Shown here: positions 4,016 through 61,564 of the stretch, in pieces
Layout: every line of letters starts with the position of its first letter
How positions within the stretch are numbered: position 1 is the stretch's first letter
Assembly: GCA_036172245.1 (NCBI GenBank)
Contig: JAYWIR010000001.1
Coordinates: 62,001 to 126,000, forward strand
Direction: 5' to 3'
DNA from: Raillietiella orientalis
Taxonomy: Eukaryota
DNA length: 64,000 nt
Position numbers and translations under genes: made by a program
Notes under the pieces: model-generated
What the model was told of the DNA's origin: nothing
Database searches by the model: none
The model's input: only the letters and a program-made list of their open reading frames with translations

Positions 4016-7000
4016 TTATTTCGTATCCAAAGTGGATCTAACTGATCCAAAGGATCACTGGAATCTCGATTTGTACCGATACTTGACTTCGGATTAAGAA
4101 ATTTTTCTTTGGTAAATTTTATTTTTTTAGATTGCTGATCCTGGGCTTCAAGATGGAATGTATTGGGATTAAGGCAGGCCAACACTCTAGATACAGAGGC
4201 ATCCTCTGTTGCTGGCTTTGGCTCACAAGATTGGGCACAATACCTGCCTGATTCGGGTGAAGCATCTATGGTACTACTAATTAGGATTCTATGATAAACA
4301 GCTTACCACCATCATGTAGAGTCACACCACCATATTCCTGGGTGCTGGTAACAACTTCACTACGCTCAGCCTGCTGAGCACTTTTGTGTTTAGACACAGT
4401 GGTGCTAATGACATGTTGCACATATGCCCAGTATGCCTGATAACAGAAATGCAGCTGACTACTATCTTGAAGCATGGCTCGTCGCTGACTGCTCATTGAG
4501 AGTGCAAGCTGCATCAAGTCTGCAAGTCCATGTCCAGTATGGATCTCATTGGTAGCTGCAGTTAGCAAGCAGAATATCCCAGATTTTCCCACTCCGGAAA
4601 GGCAATGAACCACAATGGGATGTTGGCTACTGCGTTGTTTTCCATAATAATTCAAGACAAGATCCACGAAAAGCATGAGCTGAACAGAATTCCTACATTC
4701 ATTATTACCAAGATGCCTGCAATTTACTAGCCAATTACCTATTGGGCCAGTTTAAAAACTGAAGATGCAGAACAACCTGAGACACTTTGCCTTCCCGCAT
4801 GCTGACAGTGAGAATGCGTTCAAAGCAGCCTGCATTTGTCTTTTGACTTTGTAACTGCACACTCACTGCTCCAAATTCTCTGGTTGCACCTCGACTACTT
4901 GGCCAGTACTCTAAGCCATGCATCTGCACTGTAATCAGCTGTGTTCCATCAAATAACACAAACCTCTTCTTCTCCCAGTAAACAAACAATTACTTCAACC
5001 TGTTCTTGCAAAACCATGCTCCAAAAATCTTGATAAGTGGATGGTAGTGGGCACTGGGTTGCTATAAATTCAGGAGAATGGGGGCTCAGCTTCTGAATAA
5101 ATCTATTCATAAGCACAGAAAAATACAATTTACGCTCTACCTACTCGAATGTACGAAGCATTAATGTAATCATCTTTGGTTATTGGAAGTTGAACACGAC
5201 TGAAATCATATGGCAAAATATCTGGGAAACGATTTTTCATGGGATAACAGCGTGCTACTGAAATGCTAGAACGCCGTCCAACTGATTCCTACACAGAACA
5301 CGTACTCCACCCTTGCTGTTTAATCCTGCTTTTTACCTGCTGCTCAACATATTCCTTCCATCTGAGTTCCAGATGAGTGATCCCATTTAAAGTTTTTTTT
5401 TCTAGACTTTCAACAAGCTTGCCAAATTTCTCCCCATCTATGCATAGTTTTTCCAAAACTTCAGTCTGACTCAGTGGACTTATGTTTTTGGACACCTCTT
5501 GACTCTGAGCTGATGGTGGTACATTGGTTACCTACATGACAACTGATATGCAGTACTATAATGAACCCTCAAATCTACCTTTGGAGGCTGAGAAAAACAA
5601 TCTCTGTCAGTAGACAGATCCTGAAATTTGGTCTCCAACGTCGATAATTCAGGATCTGGGGTGGGCTGATAAAATACCGTGGCTAACAAATCAACATTGG
5701 ACATAGGTGCCACCTTAACAGTTGATTTGGCTGGGAACAGATCTTCCTGATGGCTGCACTGAGGGGGCATAGGATTATTTGATACAGGCAACACAGATGG
5801 AAAAGTAGCAACATCAGTATGGCTACTGACAGTTAAAGGAGAGGGTATCACAGAGGTAGAAGGTGGCAATGGAGAAACACTAGAATAATCAACAGGGAGA
5901 GGAGACACATTACAATTAAAAGGGAAATTCTGGGTGGTGGGAATATTCTGCATCACAGATATATTAGGCTGACTTGTAGAGACATTTCTAACTCCTGAGG
6001 ATGCTATATGGGATAAAGTACTGTTTGTATGGACAGCAGTTAACAAAGAAGAACACAAAGAAGGATTATTTGCCGAGATGAAGGAACCATCTGAATGAGG
6101 CACACAGTGTGATGGCATTGAACTGCAATTAGGAATGTTCACTGGTACTTGATTCCAAATTTCCCCTGTTGGTTTTCTTGAAGAACTATAAGAATTATAT
6201 GGTGTTGCAACTACATTGAACAAATTCTGATTATTTTTAGTAGAGCATCCATCAGCTGGAAACGCAGTTCTGGAAGCAGCATTATAACCAAACTCAACAC
6301 TCATGAAAGGCGGAGTTTCATGGGAAATATCAACAGGTCTATATGCACTGGCTTCAATATGCATTTGGTGGAATAATGGTGGACGGTACTGAGTAATTGG
6401 AGATGGAAAAGCATGGAAAGGTAAAGAATTCTGTGGCGTGCCATACAAAGCTGATTGTGGATAGGGAACAGAATAGTTTGGAGTAATATTTTCAAATTTT
6501 GTTGAACATGATGCAGGAAGATTGCCACTATTTATAGAATAAGGATGAGACAAATTTGGCTCATGTGGTAAAAAACCATGACTCATGATTTCATGTCTTC
6601 GGGAAGTCGTTGATTCCGGCAATTGTGACTTAATAGACTTGTATTCAGGATTTTGAATTGGCTGACAAATCTTATTAGAAGGGACAAAGGTAGATTTACG
6701 GCCAGTAGCTGAACTACCATGAATTTCTGGTGCAGGTATTTGGTCCATAGAGGATTCATATGATTTGATGTTCGCACTTTGGTATGCAGGATTCTCCATG
6801 AACGCTGATGAACTAAAGCATATGTCACTAAGTGGCACAGGAAATGGTTTTACTGATTCTCCTATGCATCCATTCAGCACAGGTCCAGGAAGATGATGAG
6901 TCTGAAGTGAAACTGAATTTGACTTCTGACTTGGTATGTGATGAACTTTGTCACTATTATCTACAAGTCTTTCTGACTGTCTCTTTCCCAAATAATCTGT

Positions 7001-9813
7001 TAAGACTGGCTGCTGCATGCTATTGGCTTTTTGCTGCCTCTTTTGATCTTGTTCTTGGCAAGAGGCACGCAGTTTAGTAAATATTTCAATGATGCTCTTT
7101 TCTAATTTCCCATAAAAATCGATTCCATCTTGTTCTTTTTTAAGAATTTCCTTACAGTTGTCAAATGAACTAATAAGACTCTGAATTGTTGCTTCTCTTT
7201 GCTTAAGTACGTCAATGATCATTTTTCTCATGTGACCATATTTTGCATTGGCCTCCACTAATGCAGAAGTCAGATTATCTTGTGCCAATAGATTTTGTTC
7301 CAAAAGTGCAATGTGAGTACTGTGCTTTTTTAATTCTTCTGCGAACAGTTCCTGTGATTGCTGATCTTGTGAAAGAATCAACAACTTTACTGTGATATCA
7401 TCTGCTTCCAGATTTGCATATAGTTCAGATTCCAGAGTTTCACGCTGTACTTTCATCTCATCCACTTTATTAAGCAATCGCTGGATATCATGGAAAGCAG
7501 CCAATCCTTCTGGGTCTATTGATGAAGTATAATGCTGAGGTAGTTGCCAAGAGCTATCTTAGTTTAAATCTCACCAGTGACTGATGAAACTGAAGGGATG
7601 TGATGTTGTTGCAATTCTTTTAAGGGCAGCATTAACAAGCGTGCATTCTCTAGATAGAAGGATGCTGCTTTATGGAGAGCACAGTTAGATGCTTCTGCTT
7701 TCTGGTGGGCATCTTGGCAATGGGCTATCTCCTGGGCCAGCTCTGCAATCAGAGTAGATGGTGCACGTTTCCCAAATGTTGCTTGAAATAATGCCTCTTT
7801 TTTTTCTTCTTCCTAAACAATAAAGAAAGTAAATTACACACGATGGCAACATAGTCTGATGGATTAATATCGCAATACTACCAGGAAATCCTAAATGGAT
7901 AAAAAGGAAAAAACTAATTTTTTGAACCAAAAAAGAAATGCATTTAACAGTCACCTGAAGCAATGTGCGTGCTTCTTCCAAATGTGCCTCAACTTCATGG
8001 TATAAGCCAGATAACTCTCTAATAGCATCAACAACTTGTTGCACTATGGACTGGTTAACACTCAACTCAGCACACTGATCAATTAGAGTCTGTGGTAATG
8101 AATCGCCTTTCTTATGAGCTTCCAGTTGCTCCAAATGCAGAGAGCCTAACAAAATATCCAATTCTTGATTCTTCTCCTGCACAAGTTGAGAATATTTCCT
8201 ACGTACTTTGGCCTTCTCTTCACTATGAGGAAGCACATTCTATCTAATTCTCCATGGAAGTATTGATTTACCTGTAAACAGATGCCAACTTGTGAATCTG
8301 CATAGGGATTACACATGCAAAGATATCAGGGCCAGCAACTTCATCATCCTCACAACTAAATGATATACCTTTGACTAAAGAGGCACCTTTCAGAGGGGGT
8401 AAAGTTTCAATTTCAGGAACTTTTTCATGATAAATAAAATCATTTTCTTGATTAGCTTCCTTTAAAAAAGCAGTCACAGTCTCCTCAACGTGATCAAGGG
8501 TATTCTTTAACTCCTTGAAAGACAACTGATGAAGTCATCTTCAAGCTTATAGTAGCTTACAGTATTGGAATCCAGCATTTTTGAAGCTCTTTTGGCTTCC
8601 TTGATTTTTGAAGAAGCCTGCTGAAAATAAGCTACTCTAGCACCCATGCGTTTAAATTCTGCGGCCTGCAATCCCTGACATAAATTACAAAGAGCTCCAA
8701 AGAGTGGTAGCTTGAAATTGATGTTTCGTAACCACTTCTAAAAAATCTTCATAACCATGCACACAAATGAAAAACTAACTTGGCACAACTTCGATCTGAG
8801 AGTAGACATTGATGGTCCTTTAATTATTTGGCTGAGCTCTTGCTCCAGATCTGTATAAAATTCAATAAGCTGAGCAGCTACTTTGGCTACCACCTCAATT
8901 ATTGAACAGAAAGGGAGGAAATTTTAGCAACTCACCTATAATAATACTTTTACGATGATCTCTGATGCTTTTCCATAAAATACACTCCTGTGCTTGAGCT
9001 AACATTAACTTAGCATAAAATGTCAATAAATCTTTGGCCATATCTGAAGGCAAAGATGACGACCAAGTATCATAGAGATGCTATAAGAACATTTATCCCA
9101 GCTTTTCTTATTTGTAAACTCACCTGAAATGCCCAAGCAGCACATTGGAAATGAGTACAAGATAATTTCATATCTTCAGAACCATAAATATTACCAGACT
9201 CGCCCAGTTGGGAATGAAGTGCACCTATGTTATACAGAATGCAAGCCATTTCGAAATTCAGATCAGCCTTTTCATAAATATCTTCCCGATTTGCATGTTT
9301 CCTGTGATCATGTTGATAACATTAAAACATGATTGTTTACAAGATAAACATACATACCAAGAAAACAGTGGAGCTTTTTTGTCATCTGTTCCTAAATATG
9401 GGAATTTTTTCTTAACCAATTGGAGCTGGCAATAATAACGTTTCATTATGTTACATCCTGCAATACTAAAAGGAGGATGCGTTGCAGAAATTCTCAGTGC
9501 TTCTAACTGCATGACTTCATCTGTGAGAGTCACCGGATTTTCTTCATAGGAATTTTTTACATACTAAAGACAACATTGTAAGCCATCGTTCAAGCTTTCT
9601 TATTGCAATACATATTTGGAAATGTATACATAAATTTGTTGCCGTTACCCACTAAATGAAACTTATCGCTTTGCAATGCATAAAAATCACTGAGGATACA
9701 GTAACACAAAAACTTGCCTCGGTTATTGATGCTGAGAAATCCGCAGTATTTACAGCTTGCTTTAAAGATAAACTTAGCATGGGAAGTAAGGGAAGAGATT
9801 CCAAATTCTGCAT
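4016..9813 (-). CDS. PTPN23: Tyrosine-protein phosphatase non-receptor type 23 (HD-PTP/Myopic): Bro1, V/coiled-coil, Pro/Ser-rich region, PTP-like domain; multi-exon
   Basis: N-terminus MQNLESLPLLPMLSLSLK|YVKNSYEENP..GCNIMKRYYCQL; FEMACILYNIGALHSQLG; ENDFIYHEKVP; YSEEKAK; KNRFPDILPYD; DDYINAS; VHCLSGVGKSG; C-terminus DPLDQLDPLWIRK* (stop 4018-4016). Confidence 0.95.
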
Positions 9814-19996: not shown

Positions 19997-21682
<1,686 letters not shown>

Positions 21683-22020: not shown

Positions 22021-22974
22021 TGTTTGTGGTGAATGGTACTGCATCTCATCATTGAGAGGCTTGTGTAAGATTTCAAATTAATATCCAGTTCCTTTAATAC
22101 TCGACTTGCAACAGGCCTTTTGACGGCAAATCAATGGATCTCGGGGTTTGTTCAAGGACGAGAGTTTTGACATGGTAATGAGTTTCATTCTCATGCCACG
22201 ATTATTCCCAATTAAGGTATGTGTATTTATTAGAAATCACTGCAGTCGTTAATCATTTTAAAGTAATTTTTCCAAATTCACCATTTACTAATTTCATGGA
22301 AAAATGTCTGATAGCCCCTGGTCTAAACACTGCTCCTGCTGACTTGATGTTTACGTTTTTGTGCTGATAATCGCGTTTACATCCTGCCATTCGTGCTGCC
22401 GTCAAGGAAAGCTTGGATTTTTCAAAAGTGTGTCTAGTACAATATCATTCTCAAATCCATAAGTGCGCCAACCTGTAAATAAGCATACTGTTTTGCGTAA
22501 AAGTTCCAACTGCTAACAAATTCATGATCCGTTAATTAATACGTGATATTTAAATCAGAACCTTCACCTAGCACTTTTTCAGCCGAGCAAAAGTCCTGCA
22601 TGAAGGCTGTGAATCATCAGGACCCTGCTCCATCATAATATGACGATCAAAATCACAGTATTCCTAATGTAGCTTCCCAACAAGTCTCTCTGTTTGGGAT
22701 TTCTCAGAAAAACCGATAAGATTTTCACATCACTACCGATGTTTAAGAAGTATACTTATATAAATCCGCGATAAATAAGTGCATACGTTAATTTCTTTGT
22801 CATGCCTTGTTCTACACACCCTACGAATACAAAACTTTTGCGAATAGTAATGAATGGAGTGACAACATCCACATGCTTTCTCAGCAACAAAAAGTGTTTA
22901 GAAGTTTCTTTCAAAAAAAACAATGAAATTGAAGTAGTCCAGGCGTTTATGACAACCAATCTGACGATTGCGTG

Positions 22975-24305
22975 GCTCATACAATCCTTTCCAAAGTCTC
23001 GTAGCAGTCCGATCGTCATGATTCTGCCCCCATTAACTTTGAAGTACTTCACCTGCCCAATCATTCGTTTTGAGAAAGGAACTAGGCTCGCAAAACAGCC
23101 TTGCAGAAATGAACGTGGTCTTTCCATTCGGAATCACGATGTTACCTTGCAAAAACTCCTCCGCAGTATTGGCGGAAAAGTGCAACTACTTGCACAGACG
23201 ATTGCCAAAACTGCTCCGAACTTTCCTAGAGTCCACAAAAGGAATGCGACATATGCTCACAGCAAGACCTATTTCCAATTCCCAATCAAGCACTCGAGGG
23301 AGCCTGCACGATGTGTTTGGAAACACACCGTGAAAGGAAATAATGATTTGGTTAGTAGGTCCCGAACATTGCAAGCCTTCAAAAGTTATTCGGCAACAGT
23401 TAAGTTCGTTTGTCAGCTGATGTCGAATTCATGAAATGATGGCAGTTCAAAACAAATTCTTGTCTTTTGCTTCCACCTCGAAGAAAAAAGAAACGAAGAA
23501 AACAAGTGTACTGTATCGAAATTCATGCAAGTTCTCGCGTTTGTTTGGATTCATTCGAAATAATTCCCCAGTATAAACAAAATGGGAAAACCGAACGCTT
23601 CATCGAGGTTGGAGAAAGGGAGGGATGGGGATGGGAGTGAAGCAAAAGAAAAAAGAATGCAGTTCTTCGTTCATCGAATTGCCACAAGCTCCTTTAGTTC
23701 TCAGTCGTTTGCGAGAGTTTCAGATTTAATGAATTCAAAGGATGCAATTGAAATGCAACTACACCACGAAGATAGCCTAACGCCACTTCGGGTTAAGCTG
23801 TCTCAGCAACAAAAAGTGTTTAGAAGTTTCTTTCAAAAAAAACAATGAAATTGAAGTAGTCCAGGCGTTTATGACAACCAATCTGACGATTGCGTGGCTC
23901 ATACAATCCTTTCCAAAGTCTCGTAGCAGTCCGATCGTCATGATTCTGCCCCCATTAACTTTGAAGTACTTCACCTGCCCAATCATTCGTTTTGAGAAAG
24001 GAACTAGGCTCGCAAAACAGCCTTGCAGAAATGAACGTGGTCTTTCCATTCGGAATCCATGAGTAAAATTAATATGTTTTCGATGAGGAGTTCTCGATAG
24101 TTGTGTGAGTGAAGAACGTACTTAACTGGGAGCAGCATTTCGGAATTTTGTTAGGGAAAAAGAGATGGGCAACCTTGGCAACTCCAGCGGTTCAAATTGC
24201 GGCCGTTGCGGGAAACTCGTAACGAAAGTCTCGTTTGAGGAGCGTCGGGGAACCGTGCAAGTTGTTTGAAAGCCGTGCGGAAGTCGTTAGCCCCTTCCAG
24301 CAAAA
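22975..24305. repeat. Near-identical 5' flank shared by tubulin copies 2 and 3 (partner ~30375-31390), differing by indels
   Basis: Direct comparison; the same spurious ORFs recur in both (e.g. MGKPNASSRLEKG.. at 23582 and 30924). Confidence 0.95.
23804..24057 (+). repeat. ~255-bp local duplicate of ~22882-23135
   Basis: CAGCAACAAAAAGTG..CATTCGGAATC occurs twice; the paralogous site at ~31141 (TGTCTGAGTAAAA) is uninterrupted. Confidence 0.92.
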
Positions 24306-26001
<1,696 letters not shown>

Positions 26002-36974: not shown

Positions 36975-37757
36975 ATGATGGCACACTTTCAGCCGCGTTG
37001 GATGCCATCAAGTGGGGCGCAGGCCACTGCTTTTTGTTCATGCGAGGAGGTGTCTTCAACTCTTGCATTTGTGGATGGTCTCGTGCTTTTAAAAATAGGG
37101 GTGGCACCTGCGATCGCCGCAGGATCGCCCTGGGGTCGTAGGATGCTGTTTTCTGATCCAAAAAACAGCACGTCAGGCATGCATTCGTTGTTTTTAAACG
37201 CCCCCAATCATTTTGCAGTTCGGATCATTTTATTTCAGGCATCCTACAAAAACGAAAAAAGGTACAAAAAGGGTCCTTTCTTTAATGCATTTTGAAACAG
37301 TGGATTAAAATTTGCGGTTCTTCCCACGCGTAGCTTACTGAGGAGCTGCATACATGCAACCAGAAGAAACATTCAGATCTGCATGTTCGTGATGACATCT
37401 CCAGAACTCACTGAGCTACTCATAGAGGCAGCGCAATGTGGAATCGATGTTTGTTTGATCACAGACTGTCGCATGGCTTTCGCCTTCCGAGACAACATAC
37501 AGAGGATGAAATCTTCAGGTGAAAACTCTTCGGTTATAATACCAGTAAGCTATAGCACGAGTCTCTTCGCAGGGGTAGAGATTTTTATCAACAGCTCTCC
37601 ATACCTGATGCATCACAAATTCCTCGTTCTCGATGAAACTGTGGCCATAAACGGGTCCTTGAATTGGACAAAGGCGGGACTATCAGGTAACGCAGCCATA
37701 AGTGGCTGTTCCAACAGAGCACTTTTCATAAAATTGGATTTTCACCCGCCATTTTGA
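36975..37757 (+). CDS. PLD6: PLD6/MitoPLD/zucchini-like phospholipase D-family protein; 5' and 3' ends uncertain, possibly disrupted
   Basis: LLRSCIHATRRNIQICMFVMTSPELTELL..GIDVCLITD..|GVEIFINSSPYLMHHKFLVLDETVAINGSLNWTKAGLSGN contains the single HxKxxxxD..GSxNW motif; GT-AG intron at ~37519-37572. Confidence 0.8.
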
Positions 37758-41005: not shown

Positions 41006-42294
41006 ATGAGTATTATATTTGGCACGGAGAATGGTTGGATCCTCGATTCTCGTCAGTCGCTTTGCTTCACCGTCGGACATGGTAAAAGTATTTCGTTTAT
41101 CTAGAAATCGTTTTAAACATAGAATAAGCAGATGAAAAGTACATCTTCCGCAAGCTTGCATTTGATTTGAGGACCCCATTTAAAATGGATACAGAAGCGT
41201 CAAAATGCACTTATGAAACAAATCTTTCAAGGAGTAGAAAAAGGAAAAAAAGTGTATGCAATGTTTTTCGAATTTGCAGTAGGAAGTGAGAGCGTATTTT
41301 AGGAGGGGAAAAACCAGGGAGATATGCCAGGGTTTCTGGATCTCGTAAAACATGCTAAAACTCATGGTATTTTTGAAGTGGAAAATATGTGTGTAGAAGA
41401 TGGAAATAACTTGCAGTCACGCAATTTCGCCAATAATTGTTTAAAGTCTTCATTTGGTAATTTGCTTCGAGATCAGGGCATACAAGGTGCAAATTTCCTT
41501 CCCAATGCTGTCATCACAAAGTGCGTGGAATGTGAAATCCTACTCCCACCTTTCTGTAGATTTATTAATGGAGATATTAATGCACTGAAAATATTAGTGG
41601 AAGAAAATAAAGTGTTTGATTTGATTGTAATGGATCCACCTTGGCCCAATAAATTTATAAAGAGAATTTGCCCAAGCAAAAGGTATTTTAGAAATATTAG
41701 ATTTGATAATGTTCTGCAGTTATAGCACAATGAAACCAGAAATTTTACTTACACTACCCATTGAAAAATTATTGGCATCTGGTGGTCTGTGTATTGTTTG
41801 GTGTACTGGTAACAAACAACATCAGGAGTATTTGTTATCTACCTTACTACCTGCTTGGCAGTGCAAACTGCTGGCTGTTTGGAAATGGGTTAAAGTAAGT
41901 CAAAAGACTTTGACATGTGAATGGATTCTTGCAAATAGGTTACAGTAACAGGGGAACTGATAAAGCAGCGGAACTTTTTGGAATATTTATTTGTAACTCA
42001 AAGGGATGGCAATGGTTCTGTACAGTTTCCAGTTGGATGGAAGTCAGAGAAACTGATAGTTAGTGTACCAAGTGCTATTCACTCTCACAAACCACCTTTA
42101 GCAGGTAACATTTGAAAATTCCGTTAGTTTGTATATTTCGTGCAGAAATTTTCCAGCCATGTTTTCCTAATTATTCTCCATATTGTTTGGAGTTATTTGC
42201 CCGCAACTTATTTCCTCACTGGGTTTCTTGGGGTAATCAGGTACTCATGTTGCAGCAGCTAATGTTATATGATAAAGTGGAGACCTTAAAATAA
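41006..42294 (+). CDS. METTL4: METTL4, MT-A70-family N6-adenine methyltransferase; multi-exon
   Basis: MSIIFGTENGWILDS N-terminus; FDLIVMDPPWPNK catalytic motif; LCIVWCT; WKWVK|VT; LIVSVPSAIHSHKPPL; CLELFARNL..WVSWGNQVL. Confidence 0.93.
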
Positions 42295-42377
42295 GCAAAC
42301 TTGCACTTAATGTAGATGTACAGTTGTTTTGCCATTGCAGCTGTGATCATCTTTTAACAAAAAAAGTCTTATTCATT

Positions 42378-43839
42378 ATGACTGCTTTAAAAACTGGAGT
42401 GTTCATTGTGGCTGCAAGGAGAACTCCTTTTGGCGCTTTTGGGGGTAAATTTGTGGATAAAACATGTACTGATCTTCAAGAAGTAGCTAGTAAGGCTGTG
42501 TTATCTGATAGTAATGTAAATCCTGAGAAAGTGGATTCTGTCATCATTGGCAATGTGATCAGTGTAAGTCACTGTCAAAAATGAATTCTTCATCTTGAGC
42601 ACACAGGCATCAGCCACAGATGCTACATACTTGGCACGGCATGTGGCTTTGCGCTGTAATTTGCCAGTTCATATTCCCTGCCTAGCAGTCAACAGGCTGT
42701 GTGGATCTGGTATGCAGTCAGTGATCAGTGGAGTTCTAGTATGTGATTGATATTGTTCACAGACACACTTGCACTGTAAATTAGGAAGTGTTAACAGGAT
42801 GCAGCCAGATAATACTAACAGGGGGAACTGAAAATATGAGTCAGTCTCCTTTTGCCTTGAGAGACATGCGCTTTGGAACACGCCTAGGAACAGACCTGAA
42901 AATTGAAGACAGTCTTTGGTCAGCACTAACAGACAAACACATCAATACACCCATGGGACTAACTGCAGAAAACCTTGCAGAAAAATTCAATATTACCAGA
43001 GAAGATTCAGAACAATTTAGTCTGCAGTCACAGCTACGCTGGAAACAAGGCATCACTTGTGTCCAACATTAATATTTTCTAATGTGCTTTTAATAGCTCA
43101 TGATGAAGGTAGATTCAAAGCAGAAATCTGTCCTGTAAAGATTCAGGCAAAAAAGCTGGATGTTATTGTGGACTGTGATGAGCATCCTCGCCCTAACACA
43201 ACTCTAGAAGGTTTATCAAAGTTACCTGCAGTTTTCAAAAAAGGTGGAACAGTGACAGCAGGCACTGCATCGGTAGAAACTTAGTGGGAACATAACCAAG
43301 TACAAACTATTTGTAGGGTATCTGCGATGGAGCTGGTGCTCAGCTGATTGCAGATGAAGAAGCATGTGCTCAAAATCAGCTGGTTCCTCTGGCCAGAATA
43401 GTAGGATTTTCTGTAGTTGGTTGTGATCCCAACATAATGGGTATTGGACCAGTCACAGCAATCCAAAAGCTTTTAAAAGCTGTCAATTTGCCACTGCACA
43501 ACATAGACTTGATTGAGGTAAGAGGAAATTGGTGAAGAATGCTACGTTCTCTAGATTAATGAGGCTTTTGCATCCCAAACTATTTCCTGCCAACGGGAGT
43601 TGGGAATAGACTCAAATCAGTTAAATGTAAATGGTGGTGCTATTGCTCTAGGTCATCCTCTTGCTGCTTCAGGGTCTCGAATCATTACGCACTTAGTACA
43701 TGAATTACGGTAATGTTATGTATGCCAACAAAGAGAATTTCCCGAATTCTTTTGTAGGCGCCAAAAAAAACGATATGGTCTCGGGAGTGCTTGTATAGGA
43801 GGTGGCCAGGGAATAGCAATGCTTTTGGAAAGTTGTTAA
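42378..43839 (+). CDS. ACAA2: Mitochondrial 3-ketoacyl-CoA thiolase; exons 42378-42563, 42607-42738, 42785-43049, 43097-43272, 43317-43517, 43555-43709, 43758-43839
   Basis: [79 protein letters not shown]. Confidence 0.96.
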
Positions 43840-46557
43840 CTTGGCTGCAAAGCCATATAGAGCTTGGTGACTACTGTGTGGACAATCTGTTGGATGTGCT
43901 CATCTTCATTACAGATGACGGTCAAAGTAGAAAGATCAATATGAGCAGTTTTGCCATCTATCACCACATACACATGCTCTCCTTTGTACAGTTTTGGTAC
44001 AGATTCCTCACCAAACATTTCTTGCAGTGTTTCTATTACACATTCCTGTGGGGCAATGAAAATATTCTGCATATTTTTCTTACCTTGAAATGGGTACGGT
44101 CGATGCGGGAAATTGGTGGGACTGTGAAAGGCACAGATTGCTGGGTTTGCTTCTCAGCTTGTAATACCACTGTCAGTACAGCATCAGCATACATATCATT
44201 GATAGGACCTGCTTCCCACTAATAAACAGGTTTGATTGACAATATGCAATTTGAAGCAAACCTCCAGAATCACTAGGTTCTTCTCAAGAACCAGCTTTAT
44301 GGCTCCAAAAATTCTGATGCCCTTCTTATTGTCTTCTTGCAAGCACTCCAGTTGTCCTGATAATTGTGATAATAAATACTGAAGCAACTGTATATTTCCT
44401 GAGAAGTATACACTCTGACGCTGTGTGACCACACTTGTTGTCATATTGGTATACTCTTATGGTGGCTGATATATTCTGCAACCATAACACCCTACTTACT
44501 TCCCAAATCTGTTGGTGAGAGTAAATGATACGTAAAATTCCGTTTCACCAGAATACCAGACAGTTTAAGGTCATCCTTTGGAGGCTCCATGGCCAATGTC
44601 CCCATAACCTACCTCAAACATAAAACTTACATTAGTAAACTAGATGGCTCACCTTAGCTGTCTTTTCACCACGGAAGTACAATTCTACACTCTGTGTGTT
44701 CCGTGGATTGTGAACCTGAATAGCAGCACTACTGTCATCCTCATATTCACGAACAAGTGCTGCTTTCAACCGATTCATCTCATTCTGCTCACCATGCACC
44801 AACACCTTTAACAGATTTTTAATGCCAGTACACTTGTATGGGAGATATGCTAACCACATGTGGAGGCTTCAGTGCTCTAATAAACTCAGAGGTCTGCTTG
44901 TAATCTGTATGTGCACTGAAAGAGATGTAATGCACAGACATGCGCAATGGTAGCTTTTGACCAGTCATTGTAATAATTTCCTCTGGCTCTGATAAAATGT
45001 GCTTGGCCAGAGTTCCTTCAACACAATATCCTAATAAACTGTTTTAATTCCTTAAATGAGCATGAATATCTAACCTGCTATAATTACACCATTTTTAGGA
45101 TCAATGCACCATGATTCAAACAGTTCTCTAGACAACCCACTTTGCATCATTCCCGGAGAGGCCATAATAACACAGGGACCTATATCATCAAAGTGATCAA
45201 TGCCCTGCATGCAAATTATTAGAAATGCAACAAATTCATCATTCCTACTTTTAAATTCGAAATATGCCGAAAGACAAAGGGATTGCTAATGGCAATCTGA
45301 CGCTTGATACGCTCATTCATAGCATTTATATATGTCTGATAAACAGCCATACATTTCTTGGCCAAGGAAGATGCGTAGTATATGGGAATATCATGGAGCT
45401 CTGGATGGTTTGCCCAATATTCATCTTACAAGACAATATTTAACATGAATCACATGTTAGACAAACCAAGAATAAGCAGCAGCTCTTGTGCACGTCCTAA
45501 AGCAAAAACAGGAATAAGGCAGCGCCCACCACGAAACACAATGTCATGCACCAATCCCGTGAAACGATTCTCACGATCTTCACGTTTCTCATGAATGTGA
45601 GTTCCATAAGTAGATTCCTAAACAAAAGTGAAAAGCTATCAGTATAGTACACATACTGTTATTAATATATCAGGAGAAATCGTGGGTATCTCAGCAGCCA
45701 TTAAATGTCTATCTTCTTCACGTGAAAAGTCTCCAGTGTATAAAACCTATATCAATTATCTAAACCTATTCATTTTGTCATACTTTAACTCCAGCAATCT
45801 CTATCATAAACATAGCTGCCCCAAGTACATGTCCAGCATTGTAAGCCCAAAATTTAATACCATGTACTATTTTTTCTTCATGAAAATTGATAGTCTCGAT
45901 TTTCTCCATGCTAGCTTCTAAATCAGCATCTGTGTAAAGCATTTGTTCAGTTGCAATGTTGCTGTAACACATTATTATCCTATGTGGATATTTTCATGCT
46001 TCCACTTACCTGACTTTGATATAATCTGAAAGAAGCCATCTATAAATTGCCTTTGTAGCATGTGTCATGAAACAACGACCTTTAAAAGTTGTTTTCATAA
46101 GAAACCAAGGTAAGGCACCACAATGGTCAAGGTGAAAACTGAAGATTTATGAAGACATTGTAAATACATGCCCATACATTGATCACTTAAAGAGAAATAA
46201 ATACTAACTGACTAACTAGGAGAAGATCTAATTCATCAGCTTCAATAAGATCAACAAACGGCAATGCATCCATTCCAGATAGACCTGGATGTATACCACA
46301 GTCCAACTACAGACATACTATAAACATCGTTATATTCCTAAAATACTTCACCATTATTTTTTTTCCTTTAAACTCCAACATGATGCATGACCGACCCACC
46401 TCTTGACCAGCACCTCTGAAATTCAAAGATTAATTGGTATTTATCAGCATTTGTTAATTTATGAAGTAGGTTCATAGTTGAGTTGAACTCACAATGGGCG
46501 AATTGTTAATAAATCAGTCTCTTCTAAAGGTATTTCGTGTCGTTTTTTAACTTCCAT
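43836..46557 (-). CDS. CPSF3: Cleavage and polyadenylation specificity factor 73 kDa endonuclease; multi-exon
   Basis: [84 protein letters not shown]-terminus KLYMALQPS*. Confidence 0.97.
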
Positions 46558-58500: not shown

Positions 58501-60930
58501 TTAATCGAGTTCTTTCAAATGCTGTGCTTATTTTACATATGTTTTGTCTACATACTGTTCTTGAACTGTAATTAAAAAATTCACAGCCTTCCACAGTTTC
58601 ATTACAATATTTCTTTGTTATGGGTCATGGTAATTAATTCATGGATTCTTGAAGTTTTCACATCTGTCCGAACAAGGATTCTAAAGATTGTCAAGAAAAC
58701 AATTTGAATCAGATGGCTATTTTTAGTTGTAGTACAGCACAAAAAAAAAATTGTAGAATAAGATCAGTTTTGCATAATTTTCACATTTCAAGATCTTGAA
58801 AGAACAGAATACAAATACTAAAAATTGAATCAGATGAATAAGAATTTTAGCTTTTAGCTAAGGTTGGGAGCATTTTAGCTGATAGATTGTGAACACTACT
58901 TTCTGATCTCTACTGAGGCTGTAGTTTGTAGCAAAACTTATAATTGTGAGTTTGCATAGCATCTCCACAGCATGCATTGTACGGAAAAAAGAAAAACTGC
59001 TTGCAATATTGAGTGTATGCACAGGTTCCTTTTGATTATTGTTGATATAATGCAACTCTGGTGACAGTATGTGTTCTTTGGTCAACAAGAATGCCTTTTT
59101 ATATTATGCCAAAGTATAATCAGTTTTTGTATGTGCGGTAGAAGTTTTGCTGCCAACTTTCTGAGTGTATAAAGAAGCTCTTTTGCCCTTTTTTATCCAA
59201 GATTGCTTTCAGTTTATTTTATTGCAAAGCCTTTATTGAATTTAAAACCAATGTGTGCTATAACAGACTTTGAATAACCCTTGTTATCATATGTAGTTTT
59301 AAATTCCAAATTTACGATTCGTATTTTCCGATCCTTTTCAGAGTTAGACTTTTGGATGTTTTCCTTTGTTTTCGAATTAAAGAATCAGACCAATTGTGTA
59401 TGCTTGCCATATTCTAATGTCAATTTTATTTTAACAGTCGCTTATTTTTTTGTATCAGCTCCAAACAAACTTTATCATTACTGTTTGCAAAGTTTTTGAA
59501 AGCATTGATCATGGAGATTAAAAAAGCGTTGTTTTATAGTTTGTTTATGAAGATGCACTTGACCTCATAGCAAAAGTGGCTACATTGGCAGCAAGCATTT
59601 TTCGAAATTTGTATCGTGATGGCACTAGCATTGGAGCAGTAGATCTAGATAAAGATTATAGTGCTAATTTTTCTTCAATGCTGGGATTCGATGATCCGCT
59701 GTTCACAGAACTTATGAGATTGTATTTAACACTTCACAGGTAAGAAGCCTATGCATGCATGTAGTTTTCTCATGCAGTCTGACATGATATTAGCAACTTG
59801 ATCTCTTGAATTTCAAGAAAGTTTTCCGAACTTGGAAATTTTTTCTTGAAATTCTGGTGTGTTCGTGGTTATGGCACATTTTACTAAATATAAAGTTAGG
59901 AACTATTTTACGATTTCCATAACTTATAAAAAGTATCTGACATCAGATGTTTTTTGTCTTTCATTAGGTGACAACAAAATTTGGAAGGTAATTTAGAATG
60001 TGCATGTGATTATAGTTTTTCGTAGTTTTCACACCACATTATTCACATTTTCAAGTGCAAGTTGTGCTTGTCTATTTCTAGAATTTTTTTTTTTGTTGGT
60101 TGTCGGAATGTAATTTCTTTAGTGATCACGAAGGAGGTAATGTCAGTGCTCATGCAGTGCATCTGGTATCATCAGCTCTATCCAATCCGTACCTTGCATT
60201 TTCGGCCGGCATGGCTGGACTTGCTGGACCTCTTCATGGACTTGCCAACCAAGAGGCCAGTAACAGCACCAAATTCCTTCATATTTCTTGTTACAGGTTC
60301 TTGTGTGGTTGACAAAATTGCAAAAGGAATTGGGTGACAATGTTACAAAGGAAGCAGTTAAAGATTTCATTTGGAAGACATTGAATTCTGGTCAAGTGGT
60401 TCCAGGATTTGGACATGCAGTGTTGAGAGTCACAGATCCAAGGTACATCAGCTTGAGGGAGTTCGCACTAAAATATTTGCCAGACAACAAACTGGTCAAG
60501 GTATAAAAAATTTGTTGGATTGAAGCTTGATAACCAATTTCAGCTTGCAGCAATAGTGTATGAAGAGACAACACCGATCTTGTTGCAACTTGGGAAAGTG
60601 AAAAACCCATATGCAAATGTTGATGCACATTCTGGAGTTCTTCTTCAGGTGAGTTTTAAGCTGTGTTGGGAATGTTTTCATTTTGTAGGAATTACTTATG
60701 ACATGTAAATGTCCTGCTTGCAGTCATGACACTTGTGGTCTTACAGTGCCATTGTTTTTCAGCATTTTGGCATAGATATGGGGTATTACACTGTCCTGTT
60801 TGGTGTGTCAAGGGCGTTGGGAACTATGGCTTCGTTAATATGGGATAGAGCAATGGAAATGCCTATTGAACGACCAAAATCTCATTCTACTGAAGGCTAC
60901 AAAAAGCTAGTGAAACAGTTAGGAAAGTAA
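55526..60930 (+). CDS. CS: Mitochondrial citrate synthase; exons approx. 55526-55576, 55796-55951, 56003-56200, 58042-58230, 59539-59739, 60123-60255, 60297-60500, 60544-60648, 60763-60930
   Basis: [102 protein letters not shown]. Confidence 0.97.
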
Positions 60931-61144: not shown

Positions 61145-61564
61145 CTAGTTTGATTTGAATTTCCCAAGCAAGTCACTGTCTCTAAACAGGAAGTATTCTT
61201 TGTCGTCCAGCACAACTTTTGTCCCTCCGTATTCGGGAAGTAAAACTTCATCTCCGACGGTTACCGACGGAGGTGTTACTTCTCCCTTCTGGGAATGATT
61301 TGCGTAAAGAGAGAAGAAAGTGGGAAGCAAGAATACCTCGTTCCGGGAACCATTTCCAATCGCGACGACCGTCGCGTTAAGTACCTTTTGCTGGGCTTTT
61401 TCAGGAATCATAATTCCCCCTTTCGTTTTCGTCTCCGCGATCGCCTTCTCAACCAGGACTCGGTCGAACAGGGGGACAAACCTCCGAAGGGCGGCAGAAG
61501 CCTGCAAAGATCACCATCACTCTTTCCTGCACTTTTTTCTTTCTTGCCATCCCATACACACCAT
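61145..61564 (-). CDS. HSPE1: 10 kDa mitochondrial chaperonin; exons 61564-61562 (ATG), 61501-61337, 61288-61145
   Basis: M|ASAALRRFVPLFDRVLVEK..TKGGIMIPEKAQ..|KGEVTPPSVTVGDEVLLPEYGGTKV..LFRDSDLLGK. Confidence 0.96.

Follow-up and report, generated by a model that had tools for sequence, protein, structure and literature searches.

What does it mean when two housekeeping genes of an animal face each other tail to tail and stop within the same four letters? The question is raised by a 64,000-nucleotide (nt) stretch of the Raillietiella orientalis assembly GCA_036172245.1 (contig JAYWIR010000001.1, positions 62,001 to 126,000, forward strand). We call this whole stretch the window, and all positions below are counted within it. 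On its + strand lies a predicted gene for an ACAA2-like mitochondrial 3-ketoacyl-CoA thiolase, and on its - strand a predicted gene for CPSF3 (CPSF73). The reading that we favour, with a probability of roughly 0.7, is that two intact convergent housekeeping genes have been packed tail to tail as a passive end-point, reached as non-coding DNA was lost locally within a compact island, and that no purpose-built device is involved.

The shared stop and the two genes that meet in it

The coding sequence (CDS) of the ACAA2-like gene ends on the + strand in GAA AGT TGT TAA, with the stop at 43837-43839, and that of CPSF3 ends on the - strand in CAG CCA AGT TAA, with the stop at 43838-43836. A single TTAA therefore contains the TAA of both strands; the overlap of the two CDSs is exactly 4 nt, and the intergenic DNA between them amounts to zero. 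Both the letters and the coordinates agree with the initial annotation of this DNA, which had drawn attention to the overlapping stops and to the missing intergenic sequence. The TTAA is itself the centre of a 6-nt palindrome, GTTAAC (43835-43840). The weight of the junction lies in the fact that two full-length proteins of canonical length end exactly there; the chance that two genes should have four bases in common is beside the point.

The four common nucleotides impose very little mutual constraint. A change of the + strand TAA to TAG converts the CPSF3 serine codon AGT to AGC and is silent, and a change of the preceding TGT to TGC merely turns the - strand stop into TAG. The CPSF3 stop can be lost only when the + strand TAA becomes TGA, or when TGT becomes TGA or TGG, and its loss would extend the protein by about 40 residues (frame 43716-43835).

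To judge from its sequence, the + strand gene is an ACAA2-like mitochondrial thiolase, nearer to ACAA2 than to other thiolases. Its exon model was made by inspection of the sequence, by tblastn of a crayfish homologue and by scripted splicing; the spliced frame is uninterrupted, with five GT-AG introns and one GC-AG intron. A protein search with exon 3 found 2159 proteins at E <= 0.001 among 2319 candidates, and homologue names and tail counts were taken from the best 120 of these 2159. The named homologues in this set are called either '3-ketoacyl-CoA thiolase, mitochondrial' or 'acetyl-CoA acyltransferase 2', and the best of them are spread over crustaceans, crinoids, molluscs and vertebrates, among them lampreys and mammals. 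Identity reaches 66% on exon 3 and is about 65% over the whole protein, and the homologues are 395-401 amino acids (aa) long, compared with 398 aa in the model. Of the two Pfam domains, Thiolase_N is matched by exons 1 and 3, and Thiolase_C by exons 6 and 7. NRLCGSG and SACIGGGQG are both present in the model; we take the cysteine of NRLCGSG to be the N-terminal catalytic nucleophile and that of CxGGGxG to be the C-terminal catalytic cysteine.

One intron of this model deserves separate mention. Intron 3 (43050-43096) appears to be the GC-AG intron, with the odd donor GCATCA. An alternative GT donor at 43059 would add three residues to the protein, and these are absent in 25 of 25 homologues among those listed (40 aligned).

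The end of the ACAA2-like protein is well covered. Its last exon reaches position 122 of 123 in the Thiolase_C profile; so short a piece (41 aa) scores only 23.4 bits and for this reason falls below the cut-off of 27 bits. Exons 6 and 7 find their best PDB match in 4c2j, the human mitochondrial 3-ketoacyl-CoA thiolase, and the alignment extends to residue 415 of 417. The C-terminal motif, C[IVLM]GGG[QM]G, is present in 109 of the 120 listed homologues, and the tail that follows it measures 8 aa in 71 of them, 9 aa in 36 and 10 aa in the remaining 2. The tail in the window, at 8 aa, has both the commonest and the shortest of these lengths.

On the - strand, the spliced CPSF3 frame is likewise uninterrupted; it is predicted to contain 14 introns of 37-77 nt, every one of them GT-AG. 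The open reading frame (ORF) piece that holds exon 5 scored 92 bits against human CPSF3, 59 bits against yeast Ysh1 and 24 bits against INTS11. Because human CPSF3 scores so far above INTS11, we read the gene as CPSF73 and not as its paralogue. The Pfam family CPSF73-100_C (PF11718) is matched by exon 14 at positions 91-117 (E 8.4e-07) and by exon 15 at positions 148-215 of 215 (E 2.1e-13). In the PDB the last exon finds human CPSF3 only (6v4x), aligned to residue 682 of 684. The spliced model includes HFHLDH, which we take to be the HxHxDH motif of the metallo-beta-lactamases, and beta-CASP and RMMBL domains are recorded by Pfam on a homologue (P0001) that aligns along the gene. The homologue, Pfam and PDB comparisons thus bear out the names that both genes had been given from the letters alone.

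The length of CPSF3 at its carboxyl end was compared with a set of 99 last-exon homologues, made up of 97 representatives, P0001 (the one match among six candidates in a word-index search with this exon) and the frame of a metagenome contig, L001. In the 42 of these 99 that align to query residue 62 or beyond, 38 run past the end of the window protein, by 1-32 residues, and 4 end 2-6 residues before it. With an ACAA2 tail of 8 aa and a CPSF3 that 38 of 42 homologues exceed in length, both proteins appear to have been cut back nearly to the shortest form found in their families. Both stops thus appear to be the canonical ends of the genes, not accidents of an open frame.

This conclusion bears on another explanation, namely that one of the genes is a silent duplicate, or uses an alternative 3' exon, so that no two mRNAs would be obliged to overlap in antisense. 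We consider this unlikely. Both spliced frames are open, the catalytic motifs are intact in both genes, and the last exons hold conserved ends that neither protein could spare. Splicing around the stops is also poorly provided for: the GT dinucleotides just before them stand in poor donor contexts only (GTTGTT and GTTAAC), and a CPSF3 model that was made to splice past its stop had a lower score, added unrelated sequence and was rejected.

The junction could in principle be a chimeric join made during assembly, so that the two genes are not truly adjacent. This is very improbable. The window contains no N characters, and a window-wide search for repeats gave only short matches at chance level, none of them close to the junction or in it. 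To leave both proteins with ends of normal length, a misjoin would have had to hit this one 4-nt palindrome. The two sides also agree in intron size and in composition, with a GC content of 41% in exons and 32% in introns.

Table 1. Coordinates of the ACAA2/CPSF3 locus and of the heat-shock pair in the same window
Feature	Position	Strand	Basis or remark
ACAA2-like mitochondrial 3-ketoacyl-CoA thiolase	42378-43839	+	predicted, 7 exons, 398 aa
ACAA2 exons	42378-42563, 42607-42738, 42785-43049, 43097-43272, 43317-43517, 43555-43709, 43758-43839	+	predicted spliced model
ACAA2 introns 1-6 (lengths)	43, 46, 47, 44, 37, 48 nt	+	predicted spliced model
ACAA2 last exon	43758-43839	+	Pfam, PDB, homologue tails
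Shared stop tetranucleotide TTAA	43836-43839	both	direct reading of the sequence
CPSF3 (CPSF73)	46557-43836	-	predicted, 15 exons, 685 aa, ATG at 46557
CPSF3 exons 1-8	46557-46493, 46415-46352, 46306-46209, 46138-46010, 45961-45784, 45746-45657, 45617-45467, 45424-45249	-	predicted model
CPSF3 exons 9-15	45204-45075, 45030-44855, 44805-44653, 44608-44500, 44455-44262, 44218-44084, 44045-43836	-	predicted model
CPSF3 last exon	44045-43836	-	ends KLYMALQPS*
First AATAAA after the ACAA2 stop	44221-44226	+	382 nt after the stop; candidate ACAA2 poly(A) signal
First strong hexamer after the CPSF3 stop, ATTAAA	43094-43089	-	742 nt after the stop; candidate, in ACAA2 intron 3
HSP10 (Cpn10)	61145-61510	-	head to head with HSP60
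HSP60 (Cpn60)	62557 onward	+	head to head with HSP10

Poly(A) signals and the predicted ends of the two mRNAs

Two genes that meet in their stop codons leave no private room for a 3' untranslated region (UTR), and RNA polymerase II must therefore transcribe from each into its partner. The initial annotation had argued that each 3' UTR and poly(A) signal has to fall inside the other gene, and the logic holds for the cleavage sites as well. The final 80 nt of the ACAA2 CDS are free of all 16 poly(A) hexamer variants examined, and the end of the CPSF3 CDS offers only a weak AATGAA at -75.

The same 16 variants were sought in the 1.5 kb downstream of each stop. No variant lies within 215 nt after the ACAA2 stop or within 358 nt after the CPSF3 stop. 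The first to follow ACAA2 is an AATGAA at 216 nt, and the first AATAAA (Table 1) lies, as had been proposed, within a CPSF3 intron. This is intron 13 (44219-44261), where the hexamer is complementary to the 3' splice site, TTTATTAG, of the same intron. After CPSF3 the first variant is a TTTAAA at 359 nt, and no AATAAA is present on the - strand within the 1.5 kb.

Other genes in the window carry their signals much closer to the stop. Citrate synthase has an AATAAA at +35, both alpha-tubulin copies have one at about +63, HSP10 has AATATA and TATAAA at +51 and +53, and in an MT-A70-family gene an AATAAG lies across the stop. With hexamers 35-53 nt after the stop in citrate synthase and HSP10, short 3' UTRs seem to be normal here. 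Because the stops of ACAA2 and CPSF3 are so poor in hexamers when set against the close hexamers of their neighbours, the pair appears to be forced into atypical 3' ends. We infer that both genes are transcribed well into each other, and that their 3' UTRs either exceed the usual length in this genome or depend on non-canonical signals. We also considered a depletion of hexamers near the stops as a signal in its own right and rejected it: the scanned 1.5 kb hold 12 hits on the + strand and 9 on the - strand, and at this density the hexamer-free first 215-358 nt are, by a rough estimate, not significant.

Passive loss of DNA as the probable origin, and a proposed CPSF73 feedback

The most economical account of this geometry begins with the loss of non-coding DNA between ACAA2 and CPSF3, which would have continued until the two stops interlocked in a palindrome. 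The interlocked TTAA, which contains no sense codon common to both, would be as far as the loss could go before one of the proteins had to give up a residue. Neither gene would then have room for a 3' UTR of its own, and RNA polymerase II would run into the last exon or exons and the introns of the partner before it met a cleavage and polyadenylation site. The two mRNAs would be complementary over both 3' UTRs, probably for several hundred nt in all. Such an antisense overlap of the ACAA2 and CPSF3 mRNAs may cause some interference or form some double-stranded RNA; nothing points to its use.

The compaction is plainly visible around the junction. Of the 20 introns of ACAA2 and CPSF3, 18 measure 37-49 nt and the other two 70 and 77 nt. 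The TAA of the MT-A70-family methyltransferase gene (42292-42294, + strand) stands only 83 nt before the ACAA2 ATG (42378).

The initial annotation had suggested a more active role for the overlap, in which CPSF73 activity could set its length and so feed back on its own expression. Worked out further, this proposal would make the locus a functional sense-antisense module: the amount of CPSF73 would set the extent of read-in between ACAA2 and CPSF3 in both directions, and CPSF3 expression would in turn respond to the transcriptional interference or double-stranded RNA that this produces. The geometry does make mutual read-in unavoidable, and neither gene has a poly(A) hexamer nearby. There is also a precedent in PCF11, a cleavage and polyadenylation factor that, according to the excerpt available of Kamieniarz-Gdula et al. 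(2019, PMC6458999), is autoregulated through the use of a poly(A) site; the same excerpt describes the closely spaced convergent genes MFSD12 and FZR1 as down-regulated when PCF11 is depleted. However, the sequence contains nothing specific to a circuit: RNA structure at the junction is not unusual (z -0.47 and +1.29), and Rfam and tRNA scans of the whole 64-kb window gave no match. We therefore regard a functional module of this kind as improbable.

A second line of evidence comes from L001, which was the only locus recovered when metagenomes were scanned with the CPSF3 last exon. This contig of 2612 nt (61% GC) carries an intronless CPSF3 frame of 683 codons and is 58% identical to the window in the last exon, yet the 474 nt that follow its stop contain no antisense thiolase (best tblastn E 8.6). 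The pairing with ACAA2 is therefore not general to CPSF3, with the proviso that L001 is too distant to inform on this lineage. To judge by its appearance, L001 comes from a distant eukaryote and is either a transcript or a gene without introns.

The strongest form of the proposal, in which CPSF3 would sense its own product, is less probable still. As neither gene has a terminator region to itself, the level of CPSF73 would decide how deeply each polymerase travels into the partner gene; the interference or double-stranded RNA so produced would determine the output of CPSF3, and a homeostatic antisense circuit would couple CPSF3 to a gene of fatty-acid oxidation. What speaks for a CPSF73 feedback is solely the analogy with PCF11, and the idea is pure conjecture.

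Three points nevertheless weigh against passive packing. Large parts of the 64-kb window are non-coding or rich in repeats, so there is no extreme compaction of the genome as a whole; the wide non-coding and repeat-like stretches indicate instead that compaction is local. No relative was found in which the two genes form a pair; the metagenome scan with the CPSF3 last exon had yielded L001 as its one locus. Finally, in the excerpt available of Solda et al. (2008, PMC2330155), five metazoans have fewer CDS/CDS overlaps than a random model would give, and such overlaps are thought to be selected against, so that a neutral origin is not self-evident.

The surrounding genes and known overlaps

Elsewhere in the window we find a PTPN23-like gene, the two alpha-tubulin copies, a PLD-like ORF, citrate synthase and the HSP10/HSP60 pair. 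HSP10 and HSP60 stand head to head, which is their usual arrangement in animals. A second convergent pair is formed by citrate synthase (+ strand, stop 60928-60930) and HSP10 (- strand, stop 61147-61145), whose stops are separated by 214 nt. Citrate synthase shows gaps of more than 1.5 kb between its coding pieces, compared with the mini-introns of ACAA2 and CPSF3.

Immediately upstream of ACAA2, the MT-A70-family gene is presumably METTL4-like. The ACAA2 ATG is preceded, at a distance of 37 nt, by a strong acceptor-like site with a pyrimidine run and CAG (about 42326-42341); this site could be the end of a 5'-UTR intron or the trans-splice acceptor of an operon-like pair.

Several other features of the window were recorded in passing. 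The two alpha-tubulin frames (20309-21679 and 24655-25998) are nearly identical tandem copies, apparently intronless and about 4.3 kb apart; their antisense ORFs are identical, an AATAAA follows the stop at the same position in both, and the pair suggests a recent tandem duplication. Between them the same open frame of about 115-125 aa occurs twice (22759-23133 and 23780-24121) and is probably a repeat or a mobile element. The PTPN23/myopic-like gene (4284-9563, - strand) encodes an ALIX V-domain and a tyrosine phosphatase; its best homologues are only 28-42% identical, a sign that the lineage is poorly sampled. The PLD-like ORF (37296-37754, + strand) has a PLDc_2 domain (E 1.8e-17).

How unusual is the ACAA2/CPSF3 junction when it is set beside known overlaps? 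The pair belongs to a class that is already known and rare. In the excerpt available of Sanna et al. (2008, PMC2335118), convergent pairs are the commonest type of opposite-strand overlap (281 of 615 pairs in human, 268 of 497 in mouse), and coding regions only rarely overlap (51 of 615 and 28 of 497, respectively). Like the convergent coding overlaps treated in the accessible parts of PMC2335118 and PMC2330155, the two genes lie on opposite strands, face each other with their 3' ends and have coding sequence in common. The ACAA2/CPSF3 overlap is minimal by comparison: it consists of stop codons only, includes no sense codon and comes without separate 3' UTR exons. As far as the same excerpts go, most published metazoan overlaps arise from extended UTRs, whereas the present one is known from the genes alone.

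Convergent genes whose stop codons overlap in TTAA or CTAG are familiar from bacteria, archaea and phages. As in the window, one palindromic tetranucleotide serves as the stop on each strand and gives the closest packing of convergent frames. Prokaryotic genes, however, can do without a 3' UTR and a poly(A) signal, and for them the overlap is inconsequential, whereas in an animal pair the 3' ends of the mRNAs would be forced into the partner.

Two eukaryotic systems come closer in part. PCF11 resembles CPSF3 in that, in the excerpt available of PMC6458999, the expression of a 3'-end processing factor depends on the use of a poly(A) site, and convergent neighbours suffer interference when termination weakens; the control there is exerted at a poly(A) site in an intron of PCF11 itself and not through an antisense partner. 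In Arabidopsis, convergent pairs with a common polyadenylation region have sense and antisense transcripts that overlap at their 3' regions, according to the accessible part of PMC3032780; these are plant genes, their overlap lies in UTRs and not in stop codons, and it has been mapped by experiment. Among the papers listed that name both CPSF3 and ACAA2, none is on a gene overlap, to judge by titles and the opening lines of abstracts, and a search for 'overlapping stop codons' together with 'convergent' gave a bacterial plasmid case only. The pair has a single special feature: one of its two genes encodes the 3'-end endonuclease.

Provided that the two genes are expressed in the modelled form, the locus would be a clean natural case of two essential animal mRNAs without private 3' UTR DNA. 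It would then reveal how cleavage and polyadenylation signals can be placed within the exons and mini-introns of a partner gene, and how much antisense overlap housekeeping genes tolerate. The presence of the 3'-end endonuclease as one of the partners makes the locus a convenient one on which to test termination and interference, although mechanistically nothing so far sets it apart from other convergent overlaps.

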